Virus record (IMG/VR): IMGVR_UViG_3300029908_000004
Span: 43,458 to 107,457 of that record
DNA length: 64,000 nt
Origin: a virus
Direction: 5' to 3' (one strand)
Below the pieces are notes generated by a model. It had not been told where the DNA came from, ran no database searches, and was given only the letters and a program-made list of their open reading frames with translations. Made by a program: the position numbers and the translations under genes. Below, piece by piece: positions 1,103-49,277 of this stretch. The first letter of the stretch is position 1; the number at the start of each line of letters is the position of its first letter.

Positions 1103-1324
1103 ATGAACGATAATTTGATTAAAATCTGCCGTAAATGTAAAATCCCTAAAGATCGTGACGAATTCCCGTGGAAGAACAAATCCAAAGGAATTCGCCATAA
1201 TACTTGTAAGCATTGTACACGGGACTATAGTGAAAACTATTACAAGTCAAATCAAAATGAACTATCAGAGAAAGCTAAACTACACCAAAGGGAGAAAAGA
1301 GCTGCTAAACCAAATGTGGTTTAA
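1103..1324 (+). CDS. small Cys-rich zinc-ribbon protein (73 aa)
   Basis: CxxC...CxxC pairs (CRKCK...CKHC). GAGGTG Shine-Dalgarno 6 nt upstream of ATG. One of the few plus-strand ORFs. Confidence 0.45.
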   Translation: MNDNLIKICRKCKIPKDRDEFPWKNKSKGIRHNTCKHCTRDYSENYYKSNQNELSEKAKLHQREKRAAKPNVV

Positions 1325-3048
1325 GCTTCTAATTCCTTCTCTCGTGGTTCAGCATCATAGCTATCAATAGACAGTTTCATGTCCTCAGAGAACTTTATAG
1401 CCACTTCTACTGATCTCTTGATATCTCCTATTCTAATCTCACGACCATTATCTGCCCGAGCTAGTGTTTGTGACAAACGGATGGCATTTTTGATTTGTCG
1501 TCCGTTTAGATTATAAACACTCATCTCTTTCGACCACTGTGCATTCATTTTGGCCGCTTCTAGTAGGTTGTACCAGATTTTCTCTCTCTTTTCCTGTCCG
1601 TTGTTACAGAAATGAAGTGCTACAGAGATGCGGCTATAAAATGCCTTATCAATATTCTTGACACGATTGGTGGTAAGGAAAAGTACTCCGTTGTGATATT
1701 CTAGCAAACGAAGGAAAACACCAACCATAGCATTTCTTTCGATGTCGTGCTCATCACGAGCTTCCAAGAAGATATCTGCCTCATCCAGAAGGATAACAGC
1801 ATCCCAAATCGTTGCTACCTCCAAGATATTGCGTAAATGAGATTCCAAGTGTTCTGTATCTGTTCCCAATTCTCCTACTGAGACTGAATACAGTGGCTTG
1901 TGAAGAATTTCTGCAACTGCTTCAGCAGAAGCAGTTTTACCTAACCCCGGTTCTCCATGAAGCAGGAAGATGCAGCCTCCACCTTTACCTTCAATGATAT
2001 CGGTGAATCCGCCACCATGGTATTTAACCAGAGAGTAAATCAAATCCTTACTGTCTTGATCCAACACCAGTCGATCAAAAGCATCCTCACGGAAATTGAT
2101 CTCGCTCAAGCCAGAAAGTCTTAGACGTCCCCATTCCTTAACTTGTAAGCTAAACCCCAGAAGATATGGATAACAGCGCCAATAGTCTTCTTCTTTTAAC
2201 TTGGTTTCATCTTTTTGGGTAACTTCTACTTCATCGTCGTCTTCCAAATTGATACCCAACATACGTCCACATTGGCCCCAAACGTCAGGTTTTAATCTGG
2301 AGAAGGAAACTGGATCGATTACCACACGACCAGAAGCTCTCGTTATCTTGTTCCCGAGCCAACTTGGTGATATCATGTTGCCTTCGTAATGAAGGTACCT
2401 ACCCGGTTTAGACATTGATAGAATCTTCTCTCCACGTTCGGACATGGACTTCTTCTCAGAGTCAGTGACCAACCGAATTGGTAACGAACTAATTGGTACG
2501 CTACCCGGGAATCCGTTTATTCCGAATGAATAATCATTCTCCACGATTTTGCCGCATAACCCATGTATAACCCTTAGGGAGATCCTGAATACAGGACCCA
2601 TCCATGTATAATCTATTCTTGACTTCCTGACGATACCACCAATGGCTTCTTCCCCTTGGATAACAACTTCTTTCTCTTCTGGGAAATATCTTATCATATC
2701 GTTAAGGGTAAGAACTCCGTTATCGATTCTTGCTAAGAATAATTTCTCTAACAATTCCCCCATCGACTGAATATATTTATAAAGGTCTTTACCCTTTTTG
2801 TCAGTTTTCAGCGATGTCCCCTCGTTTGATACATAGCCGTGATAAAACTGACACAATACATAGATAGGGTATCTATGACGATATATAATTGCGGCTTCGT
2901 AATCCCATACTTTTGTTAGATCGCTAAACACTAAAGTCTTTATATATTGGTCTTTAACAGATCGGAAACAGACCACTTCTTCACCAGAAATATCAAGAAT
3001 TGTGTAGAAGTCTGTTGCATTAATTAATTTCTCTGCGATTTCCATACG
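1321..3048 (-). CDS. AAA+ ATPase with large N-terminal domain
   Basis: Walker A GEPGLGKT, Walker B ILLDEAD, sensor/arginine-finger region LTTNRVKNIDKAFYSRI. Start trimmed to the internal Met (MEIAEKL) because the upstream extension of the ORF overlaps the tRNA at 3148-3232. Confidence 0.8.
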   Translation of the reverse strand, partial: RMEIAEKLINATDFYTILDISGEEVVCFRSVKDQYIKTLVFSDLTKVWDYEAAIIYRHRYPIYVLCQFYHGYVSNEGTSLKTDKKGKDLYKYIQSMGELLEKLFLARIDNGVLTLNDMIRYFPEEKEVVIQGEEAIGGIVRKSRIDYTWMGPVFRISLRVIHGLCGKIVENDYSFGINGFPGSVPISSLPIRLVTDSEKKSMSERGEKILSMSKPGRYLHYEGNMISPSWLGNKITRASGRVVIDPVSFSRLKPDVWGQCGRMLGINLEDDDEVEVTQKDETKLKEEDYWRCYPYLLGFSLQVKEWGRLRLSGLSEINFREDAFDRLVLDQDSKDLIYSLVKYHGGGFTDIIEGKGGGCIFLLHGEPGLGKTASAEAVAEILHKPLYSVSVGELGTDTEHLESHLRNILEVATIWDAVILLDEADIFLEARDEHDIERNAMVGVFLRLLEYHNGVLFLTTNRVKNIDKAFYSRISVALHFCNNGQEKREKIWYNLLEAAKMNAQWSKEMSVYNLNGRQIKNAIRLSQTLARADNGREIRIGDIKRSVEVAIKFSEDMKLSIDSYDAEPREKELEA

Positions 3049-3147
3049 AATTGTCCTTTTCTTGGAGCTGGTGACCGAAGTCGAATCGATAACCTCTACT
3101 TTACGAAAGTATTGCTCTTCCAATTGAGCTACACCAGCGTTGATATC

Positions 3148-3232
3148 TGGAGCGAGAGACGGGATTTGAACCCGCATGTCTTTCAACGGTAGCTTGGAAG
3201 GCTACTGACCAACCGAGTAGGTCATCTCCCGC
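3148..3232 (-). tRNA. tRNA-Gly (anticodon UCC) with atypical 13-nt variable arm, CCA encoded
   Basis: Acceptor GCGGGAG/CTCTCGC with U73, as in bacterial tRNA-Gly. D-arm GACC-TACTCGGTT-GGTC. Anticodon arm GTAGC-CTTCCAA-GCTAC. Variable region CGTTGAAAGACAT can form a small stem (GTT-GAAA-GAC). T-arm GCGGG-TTCAAAT-CCCGT. Confidence 0.7.
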
Positions 3233-7826: not shown

Positions 7827-7905
7827 TGGTGGATCGTATGAGAATCGAACTCATCTGAAATCTTCTTTGCAAAAGAAGTGACCACCCCGTGCAGTCCCAC
7901 AACCC
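7827..7905 (-). tRNA. tRNA-Ala (anticodon UGC), CCA encoded
   Basis: Acceptor GGGTTGT/ACGATCC including the G3:U70 Ala identity pair. Anticodon arm CTTCT-TTTGCAA-AGAAG. T-arm ATGAG-TTCGATT-CTCAT. Confidence 0.75.
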
Positions 7906-7911
7906 ATTTAT

Positions 7912-8442
7912 ATGCCAATTCGTAACTGTTTATATTGTAACAAACTATTTGATGCTCCACAACGTGATATTACCAGAGGTAATGGTAAATACTGTTCCAG
8001 GAAATGCTCTGGAAACTATAAGAGCTCTCTTCCTAGTAAAGCTCCTATTATAGAGCTTACTTGTGCTTATTGTAATAGTACATTTACTAAGCCTTCCAGA
8101 TACGTTAGAAAAGCCAATTCTAGAAGCGGATTGCGCTTTTGTAACCGTAAGTGTAAAGAACTTGGACAGCGATTAGACGGTGGTAACATAAAAGCTATAC
8201 AACCATCTCATTTTGGCACAGGTACCGGAGAACACCATTATAGAGCAAAAGCTCTAAACGCATTCCCAAATAAGTGTAATAGATGTGGATATGATGAATT
8301 AATAGGGATCCTTGTTGTACACCACAAGGATCGTAACCGTTCCAATTCTCATCTATCAAACTTAGAGATTCTGTGCCCAAATTGTCACGCTAAAGAACAT
8401 TACATTAATCACGATGGATCGTATAGCTCAAAGAGAAAATGA
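7912..8442 (+). CDS. HNH homing endonuclease with N-terminal zinc-finger repeats
   Basis: HNH motif VVHHKDRNRSNSHLSNLEILCPNCH plus repeated CxxC pairs. Opposite strand to neighbours, directly adjacent to tRNA-Ala and the repeat array. Confidence 0.8.
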   Translation: MPIRNCLYCNKLFDAPQRDITRGNGKYCSRKCSGNYKSSLPSKAPIIELTCAYCNSTFTKPSRYVRKANSRSGLRFCNRKCKELGQRLDGGNIKAIQPSHFGTGTGEHHYRAKALNAFPNKCNRCGYDELIGILVVHHKDRNRSNSHLSNLEILCPNCHAKEHYINHDGSYSSKRK

Positions 8443-11517: not shown

Positions 11518-11916
11518 CTATCCATCTATGTTAGTGTTTTGTTTCTTCTTCCAGTCACGTATTGCAGCCGCTATCGCGTCTTGGGCAAGAACCGAGCAAT
11601 GAATCTTGACCGGAGGCAGTGACAGCTCTTTCACTATGTCGGTGTTCTTGATCTGCAGAGCCTCGTCCACCGTCTTGCCTTTTACCCACTCGGTCGCCAG
11701 CGATGACGATGCGATCGCCGAGCCGCAGCCGAACGTCTTGAACTTCGCGTCCTCGATGATCCTGGTCTGCGGGTTTACCCGGATTTGCAGCTTCATGACG
11801 TCGCCGCATTCCGGAGCGCCGACCAGCCCGGTGCCAACCTCATCTGCATTCTTGTCCATGGTGCCGACGTTGCGCGGATTGGTGTAGTGATCCAGTACCT
11901 TATCGCTGTAAGCCAT
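11518..11916 (-). CDS. iscU: Fe-S cluster assembly scaffold protein IscU
   Basis: Near-complete match to the IscU pattern (MAYSDKVLDHYTNPRNVG...GAPECGDVMKLQI...FKTFGCGSAIASSSLATEWVKGKTVDEA...LPPVKIHCSVLA). GAGGAG SD. Local GC content much higher than surroundings. Confidence 0.9.
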   Translation of the reverse strand: MAYSDKVLDHYTNPRNVGTMDKNADEVGTGLVGAPECGDVMKLQIRVNPQTRIIEDAKFKTFGCGSAIASSSLATEWVKGKTVDEALQIKNTDIVKELSLPPVKIHCSVLAQDAIAAAIRDWKKKQNTNIDG

Positions 11917-13529: not shown

Positions 13530-15230
13530 TTACTCCGCTTCTGCTTCTTCAGTTTCCAATACTTCCGTTTTCCCTGAAACGAATTGGGCAATCAACGAAG
13601 GCACATTGGTATCGAATCCAACCACGTCCAACGAACGTACATCGTTTGGATCTGCGATCGAGAATCCAGTTGCTGTCATCCCGATGACAATCTGATGAGC
13701 GTTACGTCCAGAACTCTGACGATAGCTCTCCAAAGCGCTAAATACGTGTTTAGGTCCTGCCCAAGTCTCGTTGTCAGTGATGTTGACAAACACATCGACT
13801 GGCATCTTCTTTTCTTGTGCATCCTTATATGGAAGTGAACAATCTGTTCCTCCCCACCCTGTGCGTAGTGCCTTGGATATTGCTGCGTCTAGCTTCATGG
13901 ATTTAACCAATCCAACATCAATCATCTTGGTGTTGTAGGAAGCAACGTGATGCCATGGCTCATTATGCATGATTACCATAGCCATTGCTACTGCACCCAT
14001 GATTGGTGACATGTTTGGACAACCAACAAGATTTCCCCATCCCATTGAGCCGGAACAATCCAAGCCAATGTAATAGTTCAAATTGGTGGTTTCAGCATTC
14101 TTAAACGTCTTATAGAACGCTGCGTCCATAGCATCCAAAACTGGTTTCACCACTGTCCAAGTCAACGAGCCACGAATGCCATGACCAGTTTGATAGGTTA
14201 ACATAGCATTCAGAACAGTTAGTGGGTGAACACGACTACGTTGCAGATATTCCTGATCCGACAGACGTGTTACTACTAGCTTTGACGCCTCTGATAGAGG
14301 AGCTAACAGCTTGATGCTACTCATCTTACCAAGGTTCCTGATCATTGCGTTCATGGGCATTTTCTGAAGCAATGCCTCCCAAACTGCAACGTGGTTCAAT
14401 GCCTCTGTAGGGATCATTTCGCGAGTGAGGTTGTACTTCTGAATCGCTGAAATGATTACCTTTGGGTCTTTTTCATTCTTCATTGCCTCGAACTGCTTAA
14501 TCAGTTCTGGCAAGTCCTTCTCTAAATCGGTTGCTCCGTGCAGACCTTTGGTAGCCCAATCAAACAAGGCTTTCTGCCCATTCGACAACGTAGCATGGGT
14601 ACCTGCATGGGTGGCACGAAGGATGTCGCGATGGCTCCATCCTTGTGTTCCATCCACACGCCGTGATTGGTATTTCACCATCTGATAAGCCAGTTTCTGC
14701 TCATCTTTCTGTGTGTACCAATCTGCTACGCCGTTGCGTAGTGACCTATTCCAACGCATCTTTGCGGCACCTTCGGCCTGTTTTGACCGCATGCCTTTCA
14801 GATATTCCATTAGTTGGAACAAATGCGTTCCGATACGTGCTACGTCTGGCAGTTTATCCAAGGCGTAACCACGAGTGGATTTGTCACCGAATGCTATACA
14901 CTGTGCCAACGCGAACAGGGCATAGTCATTCTTTGGAGCCCGGCCAGATACAGAGATATCGACAATCGTTTTTACTGTCTTCTCTCCATCTGCCGAAATA
15001 CAGCGTTCAACGCACTTTGCGTTGTCACGCGTCAACTTGTCGGCACCAACATAATAAGTGCCACCTTCGCTTCCAAGAATTATAAATCTCTGGAGTCGGT
15101 CCCAGTCACTCAGTTCAAAAACATAACCTCCAGCGTTATTCTGAACTTGATTCTTTTCTGGGAATGGTTCACTTTGAGGAATTGTTGGCTTCATCGCCCC
15201 ATACACATTTGTTAGGTTGGGTTTCTTCAT
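13530..15230 (-). CDS. rsr: Ro60/Rsr ortholog (TROVE domain + vWA domain with MIDAS)
   Basis: N-terminal TROVE-like segment (YVFELSDWDRLQRFIILGSEGGTYYVGADKL). C-terminal vWA with MIDAS DxSxS (YYIGLDCSGSM). Length 566 aa typical of bacterial/phage Rsr. Confidence 0.8.
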   Translation of the reverse strand: MKKPNLTNVYGAMKPTIPQSEPFPEKNQVQNNAGGYVFELSDWDRLQRFIILGSEGGTYYVGADKLTRDNAKCVERCISADGEKTVKTIVDISVSGRAPKNDYALFALAQCIAFGDKSTRGYALDKLPDVARIGTHLFQLMEYLKGMRSKQAEGAAKMRWNRSLRNGVADWYTQKDEQKLAYQMVKYQSRRVDGTQGWSHRDILRATHAGTHATLSNGQKALFDWATKGLHGATDLEKDLPELIKQFEAMKNEKDPKVIISAIQKYNLTREMIPTEALNHVAVWEALLQKMPMNAMIRNLGKMSSIKLLAPLSEASKLVVTRLSDQEYLQRSRVHPLTVLNAMLTYQTGHGIRGSLTWTVVKPVLDAMDAAFYKTFKNAETTNLNYYIGLDCSGSMGWGNLVGCPNMSPIMGAVAMAMVIMHNEPWHHVASYNTKMIDVGLVKSMKLDAAISKALRTGWGGTDCSLPYKDAQEKKMPVDVFVNITDNETWAGPKHVFSALESYRQSSGRNAHQIVIGMTATGFSIADPNDVRSLDVVGFDTNVPSLIAQFVSGKTEVLETEEAEAE

Positions 15231-20895: not shown

Positions 20896-21384
20896 TTAAG
20901 CGCGTAAACTTGCTTCCAAGAAATAGAGGAACTTTTCTAATCCTCTTACTAACCCAATATATACGTCTTGGGTTATTAGATCCCCATTCTCACTGGAGAC
21001 TTTCATACCTTTCCTCATTGCATTGGAAATGTCACTGATATAATCTGACATCTTTTCTATGTGGGTTCTACAATTGTCATCATAGATACCAGCGTAAGTA
21101 AAACCTTGACTATTGTTTGTAACCATCCAAGGTTTACCTTCTGGTACACCACCTAGAGCTGTTATTCGCTCGGCGATAGTATCGCTAGCATCTGCCATAT
21201 AATCATAGATTTGATCAAATAGTAGATGTGTAGGATGAAATCCATCCCCTTTCACATTCCAGTGTGCAAATTTTATATCCATTTGTGCCAGCATGGTATT
21301 AGCAAGATTCACGTTTAGATTGTCGACGATTACCTTGATCTTATCTTCTGGCACGTCAATGCGCGTCGTATACAATTCACTCAT
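20896..21384 (-). CDS. dps: Dps-family ferritin-like DNA-binding protein
   Basis: Dps signature: LNVNLANTMLAQMDIKFAHWNVKGDGFHPTHLLFDQIYD...TIAERITALGGVPEG... C-terminal WFLEA-like helix (KFLYFLEASL). Confidence 0.8.
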   Translation of the reverse strand: MSELYTTRIDVPEDKIKVIVDNLNVNLANTMLAQMDIKFAHWNVKGDGFHPTHLLFDQIYDYMADASDTIAERITALGGVPEGKPWMVTNNSQGFTYAGIYDDNCRTHIEKMSDYISDISNAMRKGMKVSSENGDLITQDVYIGLVRGLEKFLYFLEASLRA

Positions 21385-29852: not shown

Positions 29853-31364
29853 TTACACGTCTTTTAGGACGGTGAATGAATCCTTTCGTTTCCTTCTATG
29901 ACAATTTGTACACATTATGAACTCTTTTGTATCATTTTTACAATTGTATTCTTCCCTGATAGTGGTTTTTACCATTCCATGAGGATAATTTATCTCATTA
30001 CTGTTTTTATCCTTCATCCTAACCCCAGTAGTGAACATCATAGTTCCTTTACATTTGGGGCACTTTGCTGCTATACGGATAACCTTGGATTGGTCGGAGA
30101 AGAATCCAGTTTTCAGAAGTCTATTGACATGTTTATACCAAACTTCACAGATTGCTTTCTTAATTGAATCTTTACCATAACTAGGGTTCTCTAGTTGATA
30201 GTCAAAAGCACGCTCCAACATTCTTTTATATTCATTACTGGGGGTGAATCCCCACTCGGTGAGATCGTCGCCAGTAACCAATGGTTTGGGGAATCCAAGA
30301 GTCTTAGCAGCAGTTATATACCCTATGGTATTCTCCATATTTATAGAGATGATCTTAGCATTAACTAGAATCCATAGTAATTCTATAGCTCTGTTTATAT
30401 TTGGCTTGTTGGCAAGCTTCCTTCTTTCACATAGTGAAGTAAGCCTATTAGACCTAAGATCAATTACTATTTGCACCATCTCTGAGATTGTATTTCTGTC
30501 TTCGTTAGAGAATTTGAGATATTTTAATACATCCCCAATATTCCAATATATACCAGTTGTATACAAAAGACAACACCATGCTAAGATTGGATCTTTAACT
30601 TGTCCAATCTTGTCGAAATTGACAGTTTGATCTACTATATTAAAAAGGGAATTTGGTTGTTGCTCATAGATTTTGGTGTATAAATTAGTTCTCTGAAGAC
30701 AGAACAAAGCGTCACCGACGTGTTCCCCCGTTATGAGCTTTGTCATTTCGTCTCTAACACGTTCTCGCGAAACCCTAATCATCAAATTTGCATTATTACG
30801 AATTGCTCGTAATGTCTCAAATTCTATCTGAAACCCAAGTTGTGACACGAATCTAACAGCTCTTAACATTCGAAGAGGATCCTCTTGGAAACGAATGTTA
30901 GGGTCACCAATACAACCAATCCTTCGTATTGATATATCATATTTACCACCAACATAATCAATAACTTCCATTGACTCTGGGTTCATCAATATCCCATTCA
31001 TCCTAAAATCTCTACGACCAGCGTCAATACATTCTTGATCAGTAAATATAACACTATCCGGTCTACGAAGGTCTGAATACTCAGTAGAATCACTTCTCAA
31101 TGTAGCTACTTCTATGGAGTGATCTACACCATCTATATCAACAAGGACTTTTACAACTCCGAATTCTACTCCAATTGGAATATTGTGGGGAAATAGATCC
31201 ATTACTTCATTGGGTTTAGCTGAAGTACATATATCAAAGTCTTTCGGTTCCTTGTTCATAAGAAGGTTTCTAACACACCTACCTACAAGGAAGACTTTGA
31301 AGTTATTTTGCTTTAACGTCTTAGCTACTTTCCTAGCAGCTTCTAAACTACTTATCTCTGGCAT
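29853..31364 (-). CDS. cca: CCA-adding tRNA nucleotidyltransferase with C-terminal zinc ribbon
   Basis: Head-domain motifs VFLVGRCVRNLLMNKEPKDFDICTSAKPNEV and RRDFRMNGILMNP (Pol-beta/PolyA_pol family). C-terminal CPKC...CTNCH. Start placed at the ATG with an AGGA SD. Confidence 0.85.
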   Translation of the reverse strand: MPEISSLEAARKVAKTLKQNNFKVFLVGRCVRNLLMNKEPKDFDICTSAKPNEVMDLFPHNIPIGVEFGVVKVLVDIDGVDHSIEVATLRSDSTEYSDLRRPDSVIFTDQECIDAGRRDFRMNGILMNPESMEVIDYVGGKYDISIRRIGCIGDPNIRFQEDPLRMLRAVRFVSQLGFQIEFETLRAIRNNANLMIRVSRERVRDEMTKLITGEHVGDALFCLQRTNLYTKIYEQQPNSLFNIVDQTVNFDKIGQVKDPILAWCCLLYTTGIYWNIGDVLKYLKFSNEDRNTISEMVQIVIDLRSNRLTSLCERRKLANKPNINRAIELLWILVNAKIISINMENTIGYITAAKTLGFPKPLVTGDDLTEWGFTPSNEYKRMLERAFDYQLENPSYGKDSIKKAICEVWYKHVNRLLKTGFFSDQSKVIRIAAKCPKCKGTMMFTTGVRMKDKNSNEINYPHGMVKTTIREEYNCKNDTKEFIMCTNCHRRKRKDSFTVLKDV

Positions 31365-31489
31365 ATATTCCTTGTTCAATCTTATCCCAAGTACTCAGGA
31401 CTAAAAGGGGGTAGTGTAAGTTATAAAGTAGTAAAGTACACTACCCTTCGTATTTGTCTACTTCTGACCACCAAACCATCATGGCTTGT

Positions 31490-32741: not shown

Positions 32742-33269
32742 TTAAAAGTCTTCGTCAACACAACGCACGGGAATGACTCTTACTCCTTCTCTTCTCCACA
32801 TATCAACAACCCGTTTACGATCCTCAATGGCGAACAGAATTTGATCTTTTCCTCTTGGTAATGAGTTAACTAACTCATTCAGAATTTCCTTTTTTACTAC
32901 GTCGCCTGGTCTCTTATCCCCTTCCCAACAGAAGAATATCCAAGAGAAAGGAATGTCATATTTTCTTAACCACTCTACGGACAGATCCCCTGTTGTGAAA
33001 GAAGGGCGGCCAGATATGATGACGATACTACAATCTTGAGAGATTGTCCGTACCCAAGAAGCTATAATGTCCACTGGAAGGTCATTACACGCTTCTATGT
33101 GAAATTGTTTGAAGTTTTTAGGATGAGATTTAACGTAGTGTAGTCTATGACTACAGTCTGACAGTGTTCCGTCTAGATCAACAATCACTACTGGTTTTTC
33201 TCCCCATTCTATCTTGTTCTCCAGTAATAACACTCTGGACTTTTCAACACTGTTACGACATGGTTTCAT
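32742..33269 (-). CDS. HAD-superfamily phosphatase
   Basis: Motif I VVIVDLDGTL, later ISGRP and a C-terminal D-containing motif. Size and motifs fit PNK-phosphatase/nucleotidase-type HAD proteins. Confidence 0.6.
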   Translation of the reverse strand: MKPCRNSVEKSRVLLLENKIEWGEKPVVIVDLDGTLSDCSHRLHYVKSHPKNFKQFHIEACNDLPVDIIASWVRTISQDCSIVIISGRPSFTTGDLSVEWLRKYDIPFSWIFFCWEGDKRPGDVVKKEILNELVNSLPRGKDQILFAIEDRKRVVDMWRREGVRVIPVRCVDEDF

Positions 33270-36136: not shown

Positions 36137-36523
36137 TTAGCCTTTGAATGTTCCCCAAATCTTCTTATCTTGTGGAAGGTACAGTTCCCACTTCTCATCG
36201 AAGTAACAATTACTTGGTGCGTTCTCGAACATCTTTGCCATGTCTTGGTCACGTAGTCTTGCTCGTCCACAACCTATACGAGTTACTTGGAACTCTCTCT
36301 TTTGCTGGTTAATAGCAAAAGATATGAAGTTCTCTACGTAGACATTTATCTCTTTGAGTGTCAATGTCCTTAGGGACCCATCCTTCGTGGGAATAGCATA
36401 ACTATTCCCGTGGAAACCCATATGACCTTCCACTCCTAATATTGCTCCATATTCTCTTAGCGCTGTTAACGCCGCGCCGGCTCCGTGGCGACCCCCGAGG
36501 TTAGAACCGAAGACAAATATCAC
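36137..36523 (-). CDS. small Rossmann-like protein, nucleoside 2-deoxyribosyltransferase/DNPH1-like (tentative)
   Basis: N-terminal IFVFGSNLGGRHGAGAAL resembles the YFCGSIRGG opening of Rcl/DNPH1 and nucleoside deoxyribosyltransferase-family proteins. Immediately downstream of the PurA-like gene. Confidence 0.4.
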   Translation of the reverse strand: MIFVFGSNLGGRHGAGAALTALREYGAILGVEGHMGFHGNSYAIPTKDGSLRTLTLKEINVYVENFISFAINQQKREFQVTRIGCGRARLRDQDMAKMFENAPSNCYFDEKWELYLPQDKKIWGTFKG

Positions 36524-36538
36524 TTTTGTTACTCTCTT

Positions 36539-37780
36539 TCATTTTAAGATACCTTTGAAGGACTCAACTGACATTCTGTCCTCGAACCTTGGTCCAAACG
36601 AGATTGTGTTGATAGTCGGTTCCAACAAATTCTTTAGAACAGACAAGTAAGTGCTTAGACTCGGGGGTTGTATAAACAAACCCTTCTCTGAGTCGATTAT
36701 CTTCAGATAGTCTGTCCACCTGTCCAAATGGGACAAAGCTATTTCATCTACGCCTTTACAAATCTTAATGGACTTATTGACAAGCCCAATGTCCAAGTGT
36801 CCCACCCGAAACTCCCCTTGATACTCGCCTTTCTGGTTATGATTTTCTGGCAGTAAACCAGTTAATCTCATATCCTCGGTTGGGAATGGACCCACTCCGT
36901 GACGAGTGGCGTAGGTTCTTATACAGCCAATTCTGACTCTGTTACCAATGAACCCAGAAATGTTGAGCAAATCATCAGCATTCCTGAAAGTTGTGTTGGT
37001 CCATGAGTTATACGGATAGGTCCCATACCACTCATCTAACATTACTCCTTGTGCCCCCTCGAACACAGATGCAGTGGATTTTGATAGCAAATCAGAAAGG
37101 AACTCTTGTGGCTTTACCTGAGCGTTCCATTTGCTATATATCCGACTGTGCCATTCAGACCAGTCTTCATTACTATCTACTATGATGTCGTAGTCCTTTT
37201 TCCACTGGTCCACTGGTATCTTTTCCAATGTCGGAAGCAGCTCTTTCAGCTTGGCGAGGTACACCTTGTGAAGGAAGCTCAATTTGCTACGTGTTACCTC
37301 TTCTGATTCTATGTCTTTAGCAAATAGGACGTTGTTCCCATATTCAATGGAATCACTACGAGTTTGTCCTATTCCTTGTCCACAGCTACCGTGTCTGTTC
37401 TTCCCTCTGGCAATTTCTCTCAACCTTCCAAAAGCTATTTGGAAGGGAGTGACTACCAAGCAATCCCCATCAACAAATGTTCTGTCCCATATATCAGTTA
37501 TCCCAAGGGACATTAGATGAGCTGCTTCTCTCATCATGTAGAATGGATTGACCAATGTAAACTTGGACAAGTAAGTCTTCACATTGGGTTGTAGCATCCC
37601 ACTACCAAACTGTTGGAAGGTATGGCTTCTCGATAATTCAACAACGTTATGTGCAGCTTGTGGCCCACCGTTGTATCGAACTATCAAATCAGCTTTGTGA
37701 GTACGGGTTAGATACTCTACGTGGGCTCCTTTTGCGCAATCGCCCCATAGCATCCCAGCAACGAGATATGCTATACCCAT
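36539..37780 (-). CDS. adenylosuccinate synthetase family protein (PurA/PurZ-like) with divergent nucleotide-binding motifs
   Basis: PurA fold hallmarks (LWGDCAKGAHVE...VRYNGGPQAAHN; GSCGQGIGQT; TYATRHGVGPFPTE). The P-loop GDEGKGK is replaced by GDCAKGA and the guanine-specificity motif TKLD by SHLD. Start at the Met with a GGAGG SD. Confidence 0.85.
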   Translation of the reverse strand: MGIAYLVAGMLWGDCAKGAHVEYLTRTHKADLIVRYNGGPQAAHNVVELSRSHTFQQFGSGMLQPNVKTYLSKFTLVNPFYMMREAAHLMSLGITDIWDRTFVDGDCLVVTPFQIAFGRLREIARGKNRHGSCGQGIGQTRSDSIEYGNNVLFAKDIESEEVTRSKLSFLHKVYLAKLKELLPTLEKIPVDQWKKDYDIIVDSNEDWSEWHSRIYSKWNAQVKPQEFLSDLLSKSTASVFEGAQGVMLDEWYGTYPYNSWTNTTFRNADDLLNISGFIGNRVRIGCIRTYATRHGVGPFPTEDMRLTGLLPENHNQKGEYQGEFRVGHLDIGLVNKSIKICKGVDEIALSHLDRWTDYLKIIDSEKGLFIQPPSLSTYLSVLKNLLEPTINTISFGPRFEDRMSVESFKGILK

Positions 37781-37871
37781 TAGTACCTCCATCTCTATTT
37801 GAGTTTGTGCTGTAATACTTACATGGATGAAGCATTCCTGATTACTTAGTTAAGCACAAGAAGTTGACGTT

Positions 37872-38096
37872 TCACCTCTCGATTTTCTTATCTAACCATT
37901 CAGTGAACACCATGAAACTATCTCTTGGTGTTAACATTGACACTACAAGGGTGATAGGGCCTAACAGAACAAATATGACCAAACCGACTACGAATAACAA
38001 AGTTCGGTTCCTACGATCACACTGTTCTGTATAGGCCCATATCCAAGGTAGTGCCATAACAAGACCGAACGCTACCCAGATTTCCACCAAATGCAT
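37872..38096 (-). CDS. small membrane protein (74 aa)
   Basis: Two TM helices. Confidence 0.45.
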   Translation of the reverse strand: MHLVEIWVAFGLVMALPWIWAYTEQCDRRNRTLLFVVGLVIFVLLGPITLVVSMLTPRDSFMVFTEWLDKKIER

Positions 38097-38098
38097 GG

Positions 38099-39022
38099 TT
38101 AAGACTCTTCTCTGAAGAACTCTCCACCACTTGCAGTTGCTGTGGAGGCTTTCTCCTTGTCTGTCGCTTCAGCTTTCTCCATCTCTGAGGCAACGACTTC
38201 GATTAGATGCTTTGGACTCTGAACGGTGATAACGTTGTTATCACCAACCAGTTTTACATACTGCTCTCTGGCCTCTGTCTGTCCACTGGTAGGCCAAAGG
38301 AACATTAGATGATACTTTGCTTGAACTTCTTTGACGATCTCCTCAATGGGGATGTCAGCTTGGATGTGATCGTCGAAAACATATTCCACATGTTTCGCGC
38401 TCACTTTACTGAACACTGGCTCGTCGGCATAGAGGAACATGTACCCTTTCTTTCCTCTCTTATCCAGTGAGTCAAGCTTCGTCTTGCGAGCGGCGCAGTA
38501 CAACAGTAGATCGTAAGACTCTCCCGGGTTAGAGCCGCCCCGTCCAATTAACCAAGTTGCACATATCGAGTCGTCGATACGATTGTCTGATTCAAAATCG
38601 GACACCTGAATACAGGATGGACCTGAAGTCAGGTAATCATCGTTTGACCAGACAGCAACTTGTGGATTGGGTATCACTTTCAGCAGTCGTGCCATCAGAG
38701 TTGGCAGCTCCTTTTGTGCGATGACAGCGTTGCTGTAGTTTGATCCAGTTACATCAAACGTGAGAATGACAGGCAAAGATTCAGGGTGTTCTGTACTGTC
38801 ACAACTCTCCAGAACCCCCATTGCTTTCTTGTTGATCCGAAGAGGATCAAGCATCTGATTAACCTTTTGTGTCTTTTCTGCCTCCTCGGTGTAAGCGAAA
38901 TCCTTTACCCCTGATTTGGAACGTAATGCTCTTGCCGTTCCATAACTCGCTTCTGAAAATGTTCCTCCTCCGATATAGCTAACCCATCCCTTTCCTAAGA
39001 TTGAGTTTGGCAAATTCTCCAA
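38099..39022 (-). CDS. vWA-like domain protein (307 aa)
   Basis: Possible MIDAS variant ILTFDVTGSN; Rossmann-like alternation. Assignment tentative. Confidence 0.5.
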   Translation of the reverse strand: MENLPNSILGKGWVSYIGGGTFSEASYGTARALRSKSGVKDFAYTEEAEKTQKVNQMLDPLRINKKAMGVLESCDSTEHPESLPVILTFDVTGSNYSNAVIAQKELPTLMARLLKVIPNPQVAVWSNDDYLTSGPSCIQVSDFESDNRIDDSICATWLIGRGGSNPGESYDLLLYCAARKTKLDSLDKRGKKGYMFLYADEPVFSKVSAKHVEYVFDDHIQADIPIEEIVKEVQAKYHLMFLWPTSGQTEAREQYVKLVGDNNVITVQSPKHLIEVVASEMEKAEATDKEKASTATASGGEFFREES

Positions 39023-41031: not shown

Positions 41032-42654
41032 TTAGCTCGCCCTGTGCCACCCCTTGGCAGATTTCAGGGCAAAAAGAATGTTCTTAGCTTCTGCTGAGTC
41101 TCCTCCAGCCAAACTTTCAGTGTACATTAACATTGCAGCTTCAGTGTTTCCCTTGTCTGGGTGAAAATCAAGGAATACACCAGCCCTTGGGACTTGTCTA
41201 TCAGTTAGATTCTGGGCTTTTATCTTTGCCACCGCTCCAATTAGTTGGTCTCTGTGGTCCCAGATCCACTGTCTCTTCTCATCAGTAATACTGAAGCTAC
41301 CAATTTCTCCCCTAGCCCCGTTAGCAGGGTTCTCAACAACCATCCTGCCAACGGAACCTGAGTACTTACCTGATCCTTCAAGGATCTCCACAACAGGTAG
41401 ATCAAAAGGATCCGTGTTCTTTACTTTGAACCAATTACCCTCGCCGACTTTACTATCAACAGACTTGGCGACAATTCCTTCACCATATGGCATTGGTTGA
41501 GCAATAACCATATCGTAGAACTCTTCTGGTGACTGGTATCGCCCTTTCTCAGCACTCACGTACCAGTGCTTGTTGAAAATCCTAACTTCGGCAATGGTAT
41601 CCTTAAGTAGCGCACGCCGCTCTCCGTATGGCAACTTTGATACGTCCCTACCACGGTACTTGAGAATATCCCAAGCAACAAAGGTGGCCTCACCACGGAG
41701 CGCCTGAATTTGGCGAGCCTTTTCCGGATAAGCATTTAGGATCCCTCCTATTCTCCCAGGGCCATCGGGATGGACTAATTCACCTCTTACAAGGGATCCA
41801 CGTAAATTTGGACCTCTGAACAACTTTCTGGAAGACCACAAATTTGATGTGTTACTTATATGCTCCAACTGTGGAAGCCTGTCGTAATATGTCTCCCCTT
41901 CTTCTCTATGGCTTCTAAAGGTAGCATAGTTGTCCATGATGAGTACGTTAGAAAGTGAACCATCATACTTCTGTTCAAATACGTACTCATCTGGGTTGAC
42001 GGTTTTTAGCCAGTTTCTCAGCTTCGTTCTGTAAGCTGGTTTTGGTATTACCATGCCTTCGTCTTTCATCGGGACTATAAGCTTTCCCTTCGGAGTGGTC
42101 ACAAAGGCATAGCGCCCCTTGAATTCGCCAGATGGTATGTTAAGTTCCCACTGCTCTGTTCCAGGAGGTACCCCCTCAACGACAAGGTCGTAATGCAAGC
42201 CAGCTCTGATTGCATTATGAGAGTGGTAATTAATTTTGGCGGGAAAGGTCCTTTCACCAATCTTAACAATACCGACCTTAGAAAGAAGCAGTGTTTTAAT
42301 TCCTTTACCGTAACCTTCCTCGATTTCCCCAGAGAAGTCTGTGATAAAGTGCGGATCATTCTCGATCGCAAGCGCACGCTTGCCACTGATCGGTAAACCC
42401 TTCGGAATCGCGTACTTGGCAAACGCCGGATTAGGCGTGAATTCATTAAGGGTAGCTCCATCTACTGACCTCGTAGGATACCATCTAGAAGTGTACAATC
42501 TAGAACGGGGATACTTAGGTAACAACATAGCATGAAGATTGTTTTGAACTCTTGGCTGTATAACAGAACCAAAAGTATCAAGTCCGATGTCTAATCCAGT
42601 CCTGAGTAGGGCTTTCGATATCGTTTTTACCCATCTCCAAACTTTGCTTTTCAT
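41032..42654 (-). CDS. ATP-dependent DNA ligase with N-terminal phosphoesterase-like region
   Basis: Motif I EQKYDGSLS (KxDG), downstream ligase motifs (GEGIVAKS). N-terminal HYDLVVEG segment resembles the LigD 3'-phosphoesterase HYDLRLE. Start at the Met with a GGGAG SD, coupled ATGA overlap with the upstream ORF. Confidence 0.8.
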   Translation of the reverse strand: MKSKVWRWVKTISKALLRTGLDIGLDTFGSVIQPRVQNNLHAMLLPKYPRSRLYTSRWYPTRSVDGATLNEFTPNPAFAKYAIPKGLPISGKRALAIENDPHFITDFSGEIEEGYGKGIKTLLLSKVGIVKIGERTFPAKINYHSHNAIRAGLHYDLVVEGVPPGTEQWELNIPSGEFKGRYAFVTTPKGKLIVPMKDEGMVIPKPAYRTKLRNWLKTVNPDEYVFEQKYDGSLSNVLIMDNYATFRSHREEGETYYDRLPQLEHISNTSNLWSSRKLFRGPNLRGSLVRGELVHPDGPGRIGGILNAYPEKARQIQALRGEATFVAWDILKYRGRDVSKLPYGERRALLKDTIAEVRIFNKHWYVSAEKGRYQSPEEFYDMVIAQPMPYGEGIVAKSVDSKVGEGNWFKVKNTDPFDLPVVEILEGSGKYSGSVGRMVVENPANGARGEIGSFSITDEKRQWIWDHRDQLIGAVAKIKAQNLTDRQVPRAGVFLDFHPDKGNTEAAMLMYTESLAGGDSAEAKNILFALKSAKGWHRAS

Positions 42655-42872
42655 GTTGTCACTCCCGGTATTTTCCACAAATCTAGGTTACATTTATACT
42701 CCGGGTAGCGCTTCATCAGAAGAAGAATACTTGGTAATATAATTGCGTAGTTCTCTTTATCTGTACTAATTATAGCTTGAGCCATAGCTGTTAAGAAGTC
42801 TTCAGCGTTATAGGGCTCAGCGTAAAGGATACCGTAGGCCCATATCAAAACGTTTCGGTCCTTCTCAGGCAT

Positions 42873-43574
42873 TTACTTACCTCTTTCCATACGCCAAAAT
42901 TCCTGTGGTAAGTCTTCTTCATTGACTCGGACAAATTGCTTATCACGATTTACATACTTTACAATAGGGCAAACACTATCAATGTGAGCTCTTACTACAC
43001 ACAATTGTTCAGCGTCACAAGAGTCTAACTGTCCAACTTCGCTGGCTTCTTTCATAAATGGTTGATCTTCTATACCCGTGGAGACGAATGGGTGTTCTTT
43101 CCACCAAGACTTCAGATACATTTGACTTGTTCCACAAGCATAAAACTCGCTTGGTGGATGGACAAATAGATCATGGTAGAACTTAAAGCATTCCTCGTTA
43201 TCTGTGTCAAAGAACAGGATGTTATGCCAACCTGTTACAGCTTTGCCTGTCTGAGCCAGTCTATCAACTTGAGCCTGAATACGATTGTCTGCGAACCAAT
43301 CATCACAGTCCCAAGTAACACAGATTTCACCGGTTGCATGTAGCGTTCCTAAGTTGCGTAAGGCCCCCACAGGCCGCTTTTCACATTGTATATAAACAAT
43401 CCTTGGGTCATTGATAGGAAGAAGATGTTGAATCTTCTTATCGTTAGGGTTGTTATCGACTACAATGAGTTCTCGGTTCTCATAGGTCTGGTTTAGGAAA
43501 CATTGAATTGCTATTTTTGCAATGTCCCCATAGTAAGCAGGCATTACACAAGAAACTTTTAACATGATTGACAT
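42873..43574 (-). CDS. family-2 glycosyltransferase (GT-A fold)
   Basis: VSCVMPAYYGDIAKIAIQCFLNQTYENRELIVVDNNPND; DxD-like CDD further on. Confidence 0.7.
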   Translation of the reverse strand: MSIMLKVSCVMPAYYGDIAKIAIQCFLNQTYENRELIVVDNNPNDKKIQHLLPINDPRIVYIQCEKRPVGALRNLGTLHATGEICVTWDCDDWFADNRIQAQVDRLAQTGKAVTGWHNILFFDTDNEECFKFYHDLFVHPPSEFYACGTSQMYLKSWWKEHPFVSTGIEDQPFMKEASEVGQLDSCDAEQLCVVRAHIDSVCPIVKYVNRDKQFVRVNEEDLPQEFWRMERGK

Positions 43575-47315: not shown

Positions 47316-47726
47316 TCAGATGATTGGGCCATCGACTGTGGATAGTATCTGTTTGTACCACACATTGTCCTTACTCCTCTCTGCCAATTCTATTAACACA
47401 TCTCCATGGCAACTCAAAGGAAAGCACCAGCATCCAAGAGTCTTATCTTGTAATTGGGTTAGTTGAGAAAGTATATTTTTCCTCATTACTTCCCAACTAT
47501 TCTGCCAAAGGGCCGGGAAACGATTGTATACCCAGTCTTCCTTTAACAACCAAGCTCTGTAACAGTCCACAGACTCTTGTCTACTATCCACTTGGAAAGT
47601 AGCAAAAGTCTTGTTAACGTCTAGATGAGTGAACGGATTACCAAGCTCGGTTGTTCTATCTATCCGAATATCAAATTTACCCCTCTTCAGATGGACAACT
47701 CTCCCTGGCATCTTTTCTCCCTTCAT
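47316..47726 (-). CDS. DUF4326-family protein
   Basis: ELGNPF ... YRAWL ... LGCWCFPLSCHGDVL matches the DUF4326 signature (GNPF...CWC.P..CHGD.L). Confidence 0.6.
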   Translation of the reverse strand: MKGEKMPGRVVHLKRGKFDIRIDRTTELGNPFTHLDVNKTFATFQVDSRQESVDCYRAWLLKEDWVYNRFPALWQNSWEVMRKNILSQLTQLQDKTLGCWCFPLSCHGDVLIELAERSKDNVWYKQILSTVDGPII

Positions 47727-47888: not shown

Positions 47889-48422
47889 TTACGAACTAAC
47901 CGGTTTTTCTATTAACTCTCTTAGACAAGTTACAAGAAATTTGTCCACAGTCAAAGTTGTACTTGGTAACACAGTTACCACTTTTATACCTAAACCAGTG
48001 GCAATCCGAATGCCTTGTCTTGTCCCACCGTTGCCATCTTCTTGTGGAAATGCACACACAAGACAAGATCCTTCGATAATACCGAAGTTACGAGCATGAA
48101 GCTTAAACGCTCCCTGTGTTAGAAAACTTGGATTCGGATGGTATTGTATAACTGAATCTCTCCAATCCAGATGAACCAACTCATCATACACAATCTTGTG
48201 TGTACAGTCTCTCGGTATAATCCCCGAGTTGTATGAGTACCAAGGCAAATACACTCGTAGATTCTTGGGTGTAGCGTTTAGCATGGCTGCGTGATCAATT
48301 CCCATTGCTGCTCCAGTAGCGATTACATAGTCGAGGAAGGAGAATTTTCTCGCTGCAGCTGCAGCTAATACAAGTTGTCGTTGACTGGGGTTACGAGTGC
48401 CAATAATGGCAATCTTGCTCAT
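47889..48422 (-). CDS. DprA/Smf-like Rossmann-fold protein, paralog 1
   Basis: KIAIIGTRNPSQ...LAAAAA...VIATGAAMGIDHAAM and later GSCLVCAFPQEDGNGGTRQGIRIA parallel the DprA GTR.PS...LA..LA...VSGLA.GID.AAH and SGSLITA motifs. Confidence 0.6.
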   Translation of the reverse strand: MSKIAIIGTRNPSQRQLVLAAAAARKFSFLDYVIATGAAMGIDHAAMLNATPKNLRVYLPWYSYNSGIIPRDCTHKIVYDELVHLDWRDSVIQYHPNPSFLTQGAFKLHARNFGIIEGSCLVCAFPQEDGNGGTRQGIRIATGLGIKVVTVLPSTTLTVDKFLVTCLRELIEKPVSS

Positions 48423-48439
48423 TACTTATCTCCAATGTA

Positions 48440-48748
48440 TCACTTCTTCGGTGTCAAAGTTCCGAGAGAACGTGTGTAGCAGAGAACTTTACCGTCTACT
48501 GCTACACCAACATAGTTTCCATTCTCTCGGAACTGGACGACCTCATGTCCTTCTCTAGCTAACTTCCCCCAGAGGCTTGGCTTGTTTGGATTTTGTTCAA
48601 TTGCAAGGACAGGTTTTCCACCGGTGTCCCTGAAAAACGCGGTACGAAGACCACTAATTGATGTCCTCTTGATAGTTAGTGACTTACCACTCTTCGTTAT
48701 CCCCGTGAACAATGCTCTTGCTATTGCTTTGAACAGAGTTCCATTCAT
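48440..48748 (-). CDS. hypothetical protein (102 aa)
   Basis: Intact ORF between the two DprA-like paralogs. Confidence 0.45.
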   Translation of the reverse strand: MNGTLFKAIARALFTGITKSGKSLTIKRTSISGLRTAFFRDTGGKPVLAIEQNPNKPSLWGKLAREGHEVVQFRENGNYVGVAVDGKVLCYTRSLGTLTPKK

Positions 48749-49277
48749 ATTCCCTCCGTTGGCTTTGTTCTCTCAACCGTTCGATACACAGAGCCATTAG
48801 CTCACCTTTGCTAATAGCAGACTCTGGTTCGATAGGGATCACAGGAATGTCGTAGTAGGTTGCCATCTTTATTGCTATGGCAGTGGCACCATTCCCACCG
48901 GACTGTGGGAATGCAACTAACAGCTCACTACCTACGACGGCACCGTAGGTACAAGCATGGATTGCAATTGCCCCTTTACTTAACACTGACGGGTTAGGGT
49001 GGAAAGCGAACACAGCATCTCTCCATGCTGGGTCCCTAAACTCATCGTACAAATAAATGTTTGCATGAGATGGGAGCATATCTTGGGCATAGCTCAACCA
49101 TGGAATTACAACATTTAACTTTGGTTCCTTGCAGTTCATCATTACTGATTGATCAACGCCTCTAGAGCCTCCAGTGAATATATCAAAACCCTTTCCCGAG
49201 AATTCTTTTGCTACAACCGCAGCTAGATACAACTGGGTTGTTACTGGCCTACGGGTTCCCAGTACTGCTATCTTCAT
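48684..49277 (-). CDS. DprA/Smf-like Rossmann-fold protein, paralog 2
   Basis: KIAVLGTRRPVTTQLYLAAVVA...IFTGGSRGVDQSVM ... HPNPS ... AFPQSGGNGATAIAIK; collinear with paralog 1. Confidence 0.6.
   Translation of the reverse strand: MKIAVLGTRRPVTTQLYLAAVVAKEFSGKGFDIFTGGSRGVDQSVMMNCKEPKLNVVIPWLSYAQDMLPSHANIYLYDEFRDPAWRDAVFAFHPNPSVLSKGAIAIHACTYGAVVGSELLVAFPQSGGNGATAIAIKMATYYDIPVIPIEPESAISKGELMALCIERLREQSQRREYEWNSVQSNSKSIVHGDNEEW

Follow-up and report, generated by a model that had tools for sequence, protein, structure and literature searches.

We analyzed 64,000 nucleotides of viral DNA (positions 43,458 to 107,457 of the IMG/VR record IMGVR_UViG_3300029908_000004), here called the window, and examined a gene in it for a 413-aa protein of the adenylosuccinate synthetase (AdSS; PurA) superfamily. 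Judged from its aligned residues, the protein is a PurA-fold enzyme in which the phosphotransfer and base-activation residues and the Asp that specifies guanine are intact and the acceptor/amine pocket is rebuilt. It belongs to what appears to be a large unstudied branch of the superfamily that is neither canonical PurA nor PurZ. We give an about even chance to the reading that the protein would be a GTP-type purine-C6 ligase that binds its nucleotide, its amine, or both in a different manner and that acts jointly with a vWA-domain protein in conflict or host takeover and not in bulk AMP synthesis.

We found that the 413-aa protein matches PF00709 in Pfam at an E value of 4e-55 (residues 11 to 362 against profile positions 2 to 332 of 416). 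Its closest solved structures in the PDB are bacterial adenylosuccinate synthetases at an E value of about 1e-30, far beyond chance. The first-pass annotation of this DNA had described a PurA-superfamily enzyme with altered ligand-binding motifs, and this was borne out: the P-loop reads GDCAKGA (residues 13 to 19 of the protein) and the guanine-recognition motif reads SHLD (residues 350 to 353). Below, residue positions such as D13 and K331 follow E. coli PurA, and motif starts (13, 292, 320, and 350) follow the 413-aa protein. We place the start codon at the ATG at 37780 because a GGAGGT Shine-Dalgarno sequence precedes it by 5 nt and because the N termini of homologs agree with it. The protein is identical to the database protein P0001, and its open reading frame (ORF) was intact and identical on the 17 contigs that we read, which come from several samples and the longest of which on record is 215 kb. 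The phage genome is therefore at least 215 kb, and our gene searches of the window cover 64 kb of it.

The protein scored well below the models for PurA itself, with 146.9 bits against a cut-off of 402 for the NCBIfam equivalog NF002223 and 142.8 bits against a cut-off of 395.55 for TIGR00184. We also used the AdSS patterns QWGDEGK[GA]K and GI[GR]PxYxxKxxR, which we take to be those of PROSITE. Both patterns matched three of three canonical PurA proteins (E. coli, Acinetobacter, and Enterococcus) and 0 of 82 family members; neither pattern matched the window protein. A plain host-type purA, which had been named as the alternative explanation, is at odds with the equivalog score and with the family-wide pocket changes described next.

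To count residues, we aligned 72 non-identical phage members of the family with E. coli PurA. G12, D13, K16, G17, H41, Q224, and D333 are invariant (72/72) and common with PurA, and the catalytic Asp13, Lys16, His41, and Gln224 are all present in the 413-aa protein. Other positions are swapped throughout the family: V273H in all 72 members, N38Q in 71, T301Q in 68, T300 to Trp, Phe, or Tyr in 68, and T129 to Cys or Val in 68. K18 is never Lys, and K331 is His or Cys in 69/72. The run Arg303-306 is reduced to one Arg plus a one-residue deletion, such that TTGRRRR becomes [YWF]QGxFR. R131 is mostly Met, Val, or Leu (Gln in the window copy), and R143 is unconserved. Ser414 is kept in 55/72 and T239 in 67/72 (Ser in the window copy), and T128S is also seen. 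The residues invariant in phage members and the family-wide swaps recur in bacterial members. In the 413-aa protein the signature residues are Q38, C129, H273 (TRHG at 292), Y300-Q301 (YQGEFR at 320), and H331/D333 (SHLD at 350). The first-pass annotation had held that the lysines of the two motifs were lost. We found this to be correct for K18 and K331, where the loss is family-wide and not peculiar to the window protein, and incorrect for the P-loop lysine K16, which is kept.

The swapped positions are ligand contacts in AdSS. In the H. pylori enzyme, the residues that hydrogen-bond IMP are D12, N37, G119, T121, T230, V264, R294, and R135* (from the other subunit), and an anion is bound on R294 and R296 (PMC11571797). 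We aligned D12, N37, T121, T230, V264, R294, R135*, and R296 with E. coli D13, N38, T129, T239, V273, R303, R143*, and R305, respectively. E. coli R303 touches IMP O2' and aspartate (PMC8342488). At Asn38, Thr129, Arg143*, Val273, Thr300/301, and Arg303/305, the window protein has Gln, Cys, Asn, His, Tyr/Gln, and a gap or Phe. It lacks the IMP/aspartate contact set of canonical PurA, with a single Arg left in 303-306. Because the family-wide swaps fall on these contacts, we regard the pocket as rebuilt, and because the pocket is rebuilt, the acceptor, the amine, or both are probably not canonically bound IMP and aspartate. The motif changes had also been taken to point to a different phosphate donor. 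This is unsupported because the guanine-specifying Asp333 is invariant; Ser414 is also largely kept, and PurZ, which was the precedent cited, has Phe and Asn at 331 and 333.

We found that the family is large, with 2,072 clusters at 50% identity at E values of 1e-30 or below. We estimated this threshold at ~124 bits, above the best canonical PurA in the PDB (114 bits). The nearest database relatives of the 413-aa protein are only 45 to 50% identical to it. Among named phages, homologs occur in cluster C (Bxz1-type) mycobacteriophages (35 to 37% identity) and in Rhizobium and Vibrio jumbo phages (26 to 28%). A scan of viral contigs with the single protein gave no relatives; an alignment-based scan did. 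Bacterial carriers include Ktedonobacteria, Anaerolineae, Caldilineae, Actinomadura, Micromonospora, Embleya, Archangium, and Patescibacteria. Of two candidate gene fusions that might have revealed a function, P0005 (676 aa) carries a low-complexity tail only, and P0317 is a vWA protein extended by an unknown segment. The literature that we searched yielded no paper about the family or the gene pair, and a 2026 census of 481 viral PF00709 proteins does not take up those that fall in neither the PurA nor the PurZ group.

In a neighbor-joining tree built from numpy distances, with few outgroups (three canonical PurA and two PurZ proteins), the family was split from canonical PurA plus PurZ in 60/60 bootstraps and was sister to bacterial PurA. 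Chloroflexota sequences nested inside the diversity of viral contigs in this tree, a hint that genes have moved between phages and bacteria in either direction. In actinomycetes and myxobacteria the family is presumably a specialized paralog, because its carriers (Actinomadura, Micromonospora, Embleya, and Archangium) presumably own a canonical purA.

The first-pass annotation had favored a PurZ-like enzyme. According to this explanation, the protein would be of the PurZ/PurZ0 type and make 2-aminoadenine (Z) precursors from dGMP, and the neighboring ORF would cull dAMP. In line with it, PHROG 1211 ("2-aminooxy adenylosuccinate synthetase") matches the window protein at 1e-61, the loss of Arg303 resembles PurZ's missing 2'-OH contact (PMC8342488), and the DNPH1-like DmtZ does accompany PurZ0 in real Z-phages (PMC12884076). 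However, the 147 phage PurZ/PurZ0 proteins compared all have Ser where PurA has its essential Asp13, and Ser, rarely Gly, at this position is the criterion for PurZ/PurZ0 (PMC12884076; bioRxiv 10.1101/2025.10.22.683976). The window protein keeps Asp13 in GDCAKGA, where phiVC8 PurZ has GSTGKG. At the base-reading positions 331/333 the family has H-x-D (Asp in 72/72), in contrast to F-x-N in PurZ. The PurZ model NF038379 (amino_Aden_PurZ) gave 28.4 bits against a cut-off of 300, there were zero PurZ chains among the PDB matches at E values of 1e-3 or below, and phiVC8 PurZ is 21.6% identical to the window protein and lies across the 60/60 split. In the window, 64 kb of a genome of at least 215 kb, none of the ORFs scanned with Pfam was an HD, MazG, DUF550, dUTPase, or DNA polymerase gene, which agrees with the earlier remark that DatZ- and MazZ-type genes are missing from the window; the neighbor, described below, is a macrodomain protein. 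We consider the PurZ explanation hardly credible and reject it. The PurZ name also stands on RefSeq records for the cluster C mycobacteriophage and Vibrio phage pv27 proteins, which have Asp13 and which the GenBank originals call "PurA-like." The PHROG 1211 and RefSeq naming of the family is probably a systematic misannotation.

The constant partner of the enzyme is a vWA-domain protein gene upstream of it, outside the interval that the first-pass annotation covered. In the window it lies 307 nt upstream of the PurA-like ORF on the same strand, with a 74-aa ORF in the gap. The vWA protein falls in PHROG 2971 and is without a Pfam match; its AlphaFold2 model has a pLDDT of 87.9. A sequence resembling a metal ion-dependent adhesion site (MIDAS), D90-x-T92-x-S94, is invariant in the vWA family. 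We found a vWA homolog directly upstream of the PurA-like gene in L002, a 157-kb relative (45% identity, 9e-80), and in mycobacteriophage Tonenili (30% identity, 6e-40). The pair is also present in Rhizobium phage RHph_TM30 and Vibrio phage pv27, which like Tonenili are cultured phages.

To extend this, we scanned 80 viral and 80 bacterial loci with hidden Markov models (HMMs) over at most 10 kb on each side and counted those whose upstream sequence reached at least 1.5 kb. On viral contigs, 73 of 74 loci had a vWA gene upstream on the same strand (median gap, 51 nt), and 55 had a kinase-like gene within 6 kb. On bacterial genome contigs, the corresponding numbers were 69 and 59 of 72 loci (median gap, 16 nt). 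In ~95% of these 146 loci, then, the partner was the vWA gene and not purB or other purine genes. No further conserved genes were found around the cassette in the scanned loci. PADLOC 2.0 gave zero models for the PurA-like, vWA, or macrodomain proteins.

The third cassette gene, present in ~75 to 80% of loci, encodes a protein of ~340 aa that combines a J-domain (HPD) with a domain resembling protein kinases. It was found in 58 viral and 64 bacterial loci (examples are L004:3847-4920 and L012:7987-9036). Its HRD catalytic Asp is seemingly replaced, with HGA in Tonenili and in the consensus, and because of this the protein may be a pseudokinase. In the 64-kb window, the kinase-like gene gave zero HMM matches at E values of 0.01 or below. 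Pairs without the kinase-like gene are not rare: 18 of the 73 viral vWA loci had none within 6 kb, and L002, RHph_TM30, and pv27 are also of this kind.

One bacterial locus, L003 (Reticulibacter mediterranei BNJK01000002.1), has a lone family gene without vWA or kinase-like neighbors. This exception might help to separate the function of the enzyme from that of its partners. It also suggested that Chloroflexota copies are housekeeping PurA, an idea that we rejected since most bacterial copies sit in the vWA/kinase cassette.

We also noted that 37 of 39 vWA homologs start with Met-Gly, mostly Met-Gly-Gly-Gly (the exceptions are P0257 and P0358). The window copy has ATC (Ile) at that Met and a 16-aa N-terminal extension from a TTG codon that has no counterpart elsewhere. 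The window copy may have a non-canonical start or may have lost the conserved N terminus.

According to the reading that we prefer, the chemistry of PurA would be retained. A guanine nucleotide would phosphorylate the 6-oxo group of a purine nucleotide, with Asp13 as the base, His41 as the acid, and Gln224, Lys16, and Mg2+ assisting, and an amine would then displace the phosphate at purine C6. The rebuilt pocket would be the place where PurA holds the IMP 5'-phosphate, the 2'-OH, and L-aspartate; it would be lined by His273, the aromatic residue at 300, Gln301, and Cys or Val at 129, with Arg303 and Arg143* gone. The branch would work as a module with the vWA protein encoded just upstream and, in most relatives, with the J-domain/kinase-like protein. 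In phages, the vWA/PurA-like pair probably serves host takeover or conflict with host defenses and not bulk AMP supply or DNA-base replacement.

Several points weigh against this reading. Every catalytic residue for ordinary AdSS chemistry is present, and an altered mode of binding IMP and aspartate could still be available through Gln38, Thr239, Gly127, and the one Arg left in the aspartate loop. In some Patescibacteria, the cassette copy might be the sole PurA homolog. The outgroups of the tree are few. In addition, the window copy has G15A and E14C in its P-loop and its kinase-like gene is unseen in 64 kb, and because of this its activity may differ from the family norm.

According to a rival explanation, the protein would be a genuine divergent AdSS that uses IMP, aspartate, and GTP. 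As a phage auxiliary metabolic gene, it would raise AMP, ATP, or dATP, for example by re-aminating IMP, with the vWA and kinase-like proteins as regulators. We regard this as possible but doubtful. The PF00709 fold with D13, K16, H41, Q224, and the guanine-specifying D333 fits it, as do the bacterial PurA proteins as closest solved relatives, the sister position of the family to bacterial PurA in the neighbor-joining tree, the mild change or retention of some contacts (N38Q, T128S, and T239), and the presence of the family in small-genome Patescibacteria. Yet the score is far under the equivalog cut-off and no member matches either AdSS signature; Arg303, with its contacts to both IMP O2' and aspartate, and Arg143* are lost family-wide, and Thr300 and Thr301 are replaced. 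The tie of the gene to vWA and not to purine genes also argues against a supply role, and the actinomycete and myxobacterial carriers would be expected to own a normal purA.

Given Ala in place of the P-loop Gly that precedes Lys16 and Cys in place of Glu14, the window copy might instead be catalytically impaired, a pseudoenzyme, or no more than a partner of the vWA protein that binds guanine nucleotides. G15A is unique among the 72 members and E14C is rare (4/72). Consistently with impairment, the backbone of the equivalent Gly14 in H. pylori AdSS contacts the beta-phosphate position (PMC11571797), and the kinase-like partner is missing from the window. In contrast, the remaining invariant family residues are all intact over the full length, the ORF is identical on all 17 contigs, and kinase-less pairs are common in phages. 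Position 14 is Ala in bacterial members, and because of this Glu14 appears to be dispensable in the family. We consider an impaired copy quite improbable.

A bolder reading holds that the cassette of J-domain/kinase-like, vWA, and PurA-like proteins is a new conflict or signaling system in which a PurA-type enzyme uses GTP to join C6 of a purine nucleotide to an unusual amine and that phages captured the pair for takeover or counter-defense. The amine could, for instance, be the almost invariant N-terminal Met-Gly-Gly-Gly end of the vWA partner, which would amount to protein "purinylation," or a metabolite other than aspartate, in which case the product would be a new N6-substituted adenine nucleotide. 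We think this reading unlikely.

The first-pass annotation also placed a 128-aa ORF opening with MIFVFGSNLGGRHG downstream of the PurA-like gene, and we confirmed this ORF (Table 1). It had been likened to DNPH1 and read as a nucleotide N-hydrolase that culls a deoxynucleoside monophosphate. Pfam gave no match to it, but the NCBIfam model NF049995 ("A1S_2505 family phage non-structural protein") matched at 9e-39, and it falls in PHROG 2072. Its AlphaFold2 model (pLDDT, 91.3) adopts the fold of a macrodomain, and its best matches include DarG and TARG1. We found no nucleoside deoxyribosyltransferase (NDT)/DNPH1 fold in it and rejected the DNPH1/Rcl/NDT identity; the resemblance to DNPH1 is limited to the short N terminus, FGSNLGGRHG, set beside the Gly-rich start of DNPH1. 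A profile of the 128-aa family aligned the conserved K47 with TARG1 K84, the catalytic Lys whose DarG2 counterpart is K80, and riGCG with riGCGLD at a profile E value of only 0.011. Within the Gly-rich loop at the N terminus, Asn8 is invariant, and the equivalent of TARG1 Asp125 is Ala. The A1S_2505 macrodomain family comprises 400 phage records, mostly of N4-like and PA5oct-like phages.

The phage macrodomain AdfM is DarG2-like and strips the ADP-ribose that DarT2 adds from DNA (PMC13309987). By analogy, the 128-aa protein most likely removes ADP-ribose as a counter-defense like DarG2/AdfM-type enzymes. It shares the macrodomain fold of DarG2, AdfM (PhiKZ gp104), and human TARG1 and is shorter and of a separate family. 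Its HMM had 0 matches in the 165 other PurA-like loci scanned; because of this we regard the adjacency as incidental and rejected a functional link to the PurA-like gene. The L002 homolog of the macrodomain gene lies elsewhere on its contig, away from the PurA-like gene.

The gene content of the window suggests a portion of a jumbo phage genome, encoding an SPFH protein and an AAA ATPase in addition to the RNA-repair and tRNA genes listed in Table 1. A megablast search against phage genomes gave zero matches. All genes around the PurA-like locus in this part of the window are on the minus strand. The 74-aa ORF was called on all contigs of this phage and has weak matches to transmembrane families only.

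Table 1. Coordinates of the features discussed, in window numbering
Feature	Position	Strand	Remarks
PurA-like ORF	36539-37792	minus	With ATG start, 36539..37780 (413 aa)
128-aa macrodomain ORF	36137-36523	minus	GTG start; 15 nt after the PurA-like stop
74-aa hydrophobic ORF	37872..38096	minus	Two-helix; lies in the gap between the vWA gene and the PurA-like ORF; peculiar to this phage
vWA-domain protein gene	38099..39022	minus	Upstream partner of the PurA-like gene; true start possibly near 38974
N-terminal extension of vWA copy	38972-39022	minus	From TTG to the ATC codon
DUF4326 protein and two DprA/SLOG-like ORFs	47316-47726, 47889-48422, 48684-49277	minus	Weak PADLOC ShosA/PsyrA matches
RNA-repair/tRNA genes	135-21910; 13530-15230; 29853-31379; 32742-33269; 41032-42678		Ten tRNA genes, Ro60/TROVE protein with its own vWA domain, CCA-adding enzyme, PNKP-type HAD phosphatase, ATP-dependent ligase
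Family-2 glycosyltransferase	42873-43574	minus	4.5e-17; just upstream of the ligase gene
NifU/IscU-type Fe-S scaffold (7e-55) and ferritin-like protein	11518-11916 and 20896-21384	minus	
HNH endonuclease ORF	7912-8442	plus	Abuts tRNA-Ala
tRNA-Ala	7827-7905	minus	
AAA ATPase ORF call	1321-3186		AAA domain at residues 373-592
tRNA-Thr(cgt)	3063-3138		Overlaps the AAA ATPase ORF call at its 5' end
tRNA-Gly	3148-3232		Overlaps the AAA ATPase ORF call

Together with the macrodomain gene, the DUF4326 and SLOG-like ORFs suggest a set of NAD/ADP-ribose or nucleotide-conflict genes. RNA-repair genes are a theme of the window, and near the PurA-like gene elsewhere we noted a polynucleotide kinase (Tonenili) and an "RNA-binding protein" (pv27). 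The HNH endonuclease ORF is one of few plus-strand ORFs in the window. Because tRNA-Thr and tRNA-Gly overlap the longest ORF call for the AAA ATPase, its true start must be further downstream.

These results matter in several ways. Because PHROG 1211 and RefSeq name the family like true PurZ, the shared label invites false Z-genome calls; looking for Asp or Ser at position 13 is enough to tell them apart. The ~2,000 clusters (50% identity) combine a PurA active site, a rebuilt pocket, and a vWA partner, and they span several bacterial phyla, jumbo phages, and easily grown model phages such as Bxz1-type mycobacteriophages, RHph_TM30, and pv27. This makes for a tractable unstudied enzyme family from which new purine-C6 ligation chemistry or a phage-host conflict module could emerge. 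The 128-aa macrodomain adds to a growing group of phage enzymes that may undo defenses based on ADP-ribosylation.

Compared with canonical PurA (E. coli; PDB 1ADE/1CG0; EC 6.3.4.4), the window protein is ~30% identical and shares the PF00709 fold, D13/K16/H41/Q224, Asp333, and Ser414-x-Gly-Pro. In contrast, K18, N38, T42, T129, R131, R143*, V273, T300, T301, R303-R305, and K331 are replaced in the family, which is coupled to a vWA gene and falls below the equivalog cut-off and outside both AdSS patterns, and a C-terminal subdomain of ~60 to 80 aa is missing from the window copy. With PurZ/PurZ0 (phiVC8, S-2L, and Wayne-like phages), the likeness is that of a phage-borne member of the PurA superfamily with no Arg at the 2'-OH position. 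PurZ has Ser for Asp13 and Phe/Asn for K331/D333, unlike the window protein; it derives from a short archaeal-type PurA, and its companions are DatZ/MazZ/DUF550 or DutZ/DmtZ plus DpoZ (PMC8342488, PMC12884076).

The closest known counterparts are the "PurA-like" proteins of cluster C mycobacteriophages, RHph_TM30, and pv27, which are of the same family, carry its signature residues, and have the vWA gene directly upstream (identity to the Tonenili protein is 35 to 37%). Several of these phages also have RNA-repair or tRNA genes near the PurA-like gene. Tonenili has the J-domain/kinase-like gene, whereas the window is without it, and E14C and G15A mark the window copy. A more distant parallel is the TerY-P triad of vWA, PP2C, and kinase proteins, a vWA plus Ser/Thr-kinase module of conflict or stress. 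As in TerY-P, the gene for a vWA protein whose MIDAS motif is intact neighbors the gene for a kinase-like protein, and the cassette is compact and patchy in bacteria and phages. In contrast to TerY-P, the cassette described here is without PP2C, its kinase-like protein has an N-terminal J-domain and seems to be without the HRD Asp, and its third gene encodes a PurA-like ligase.

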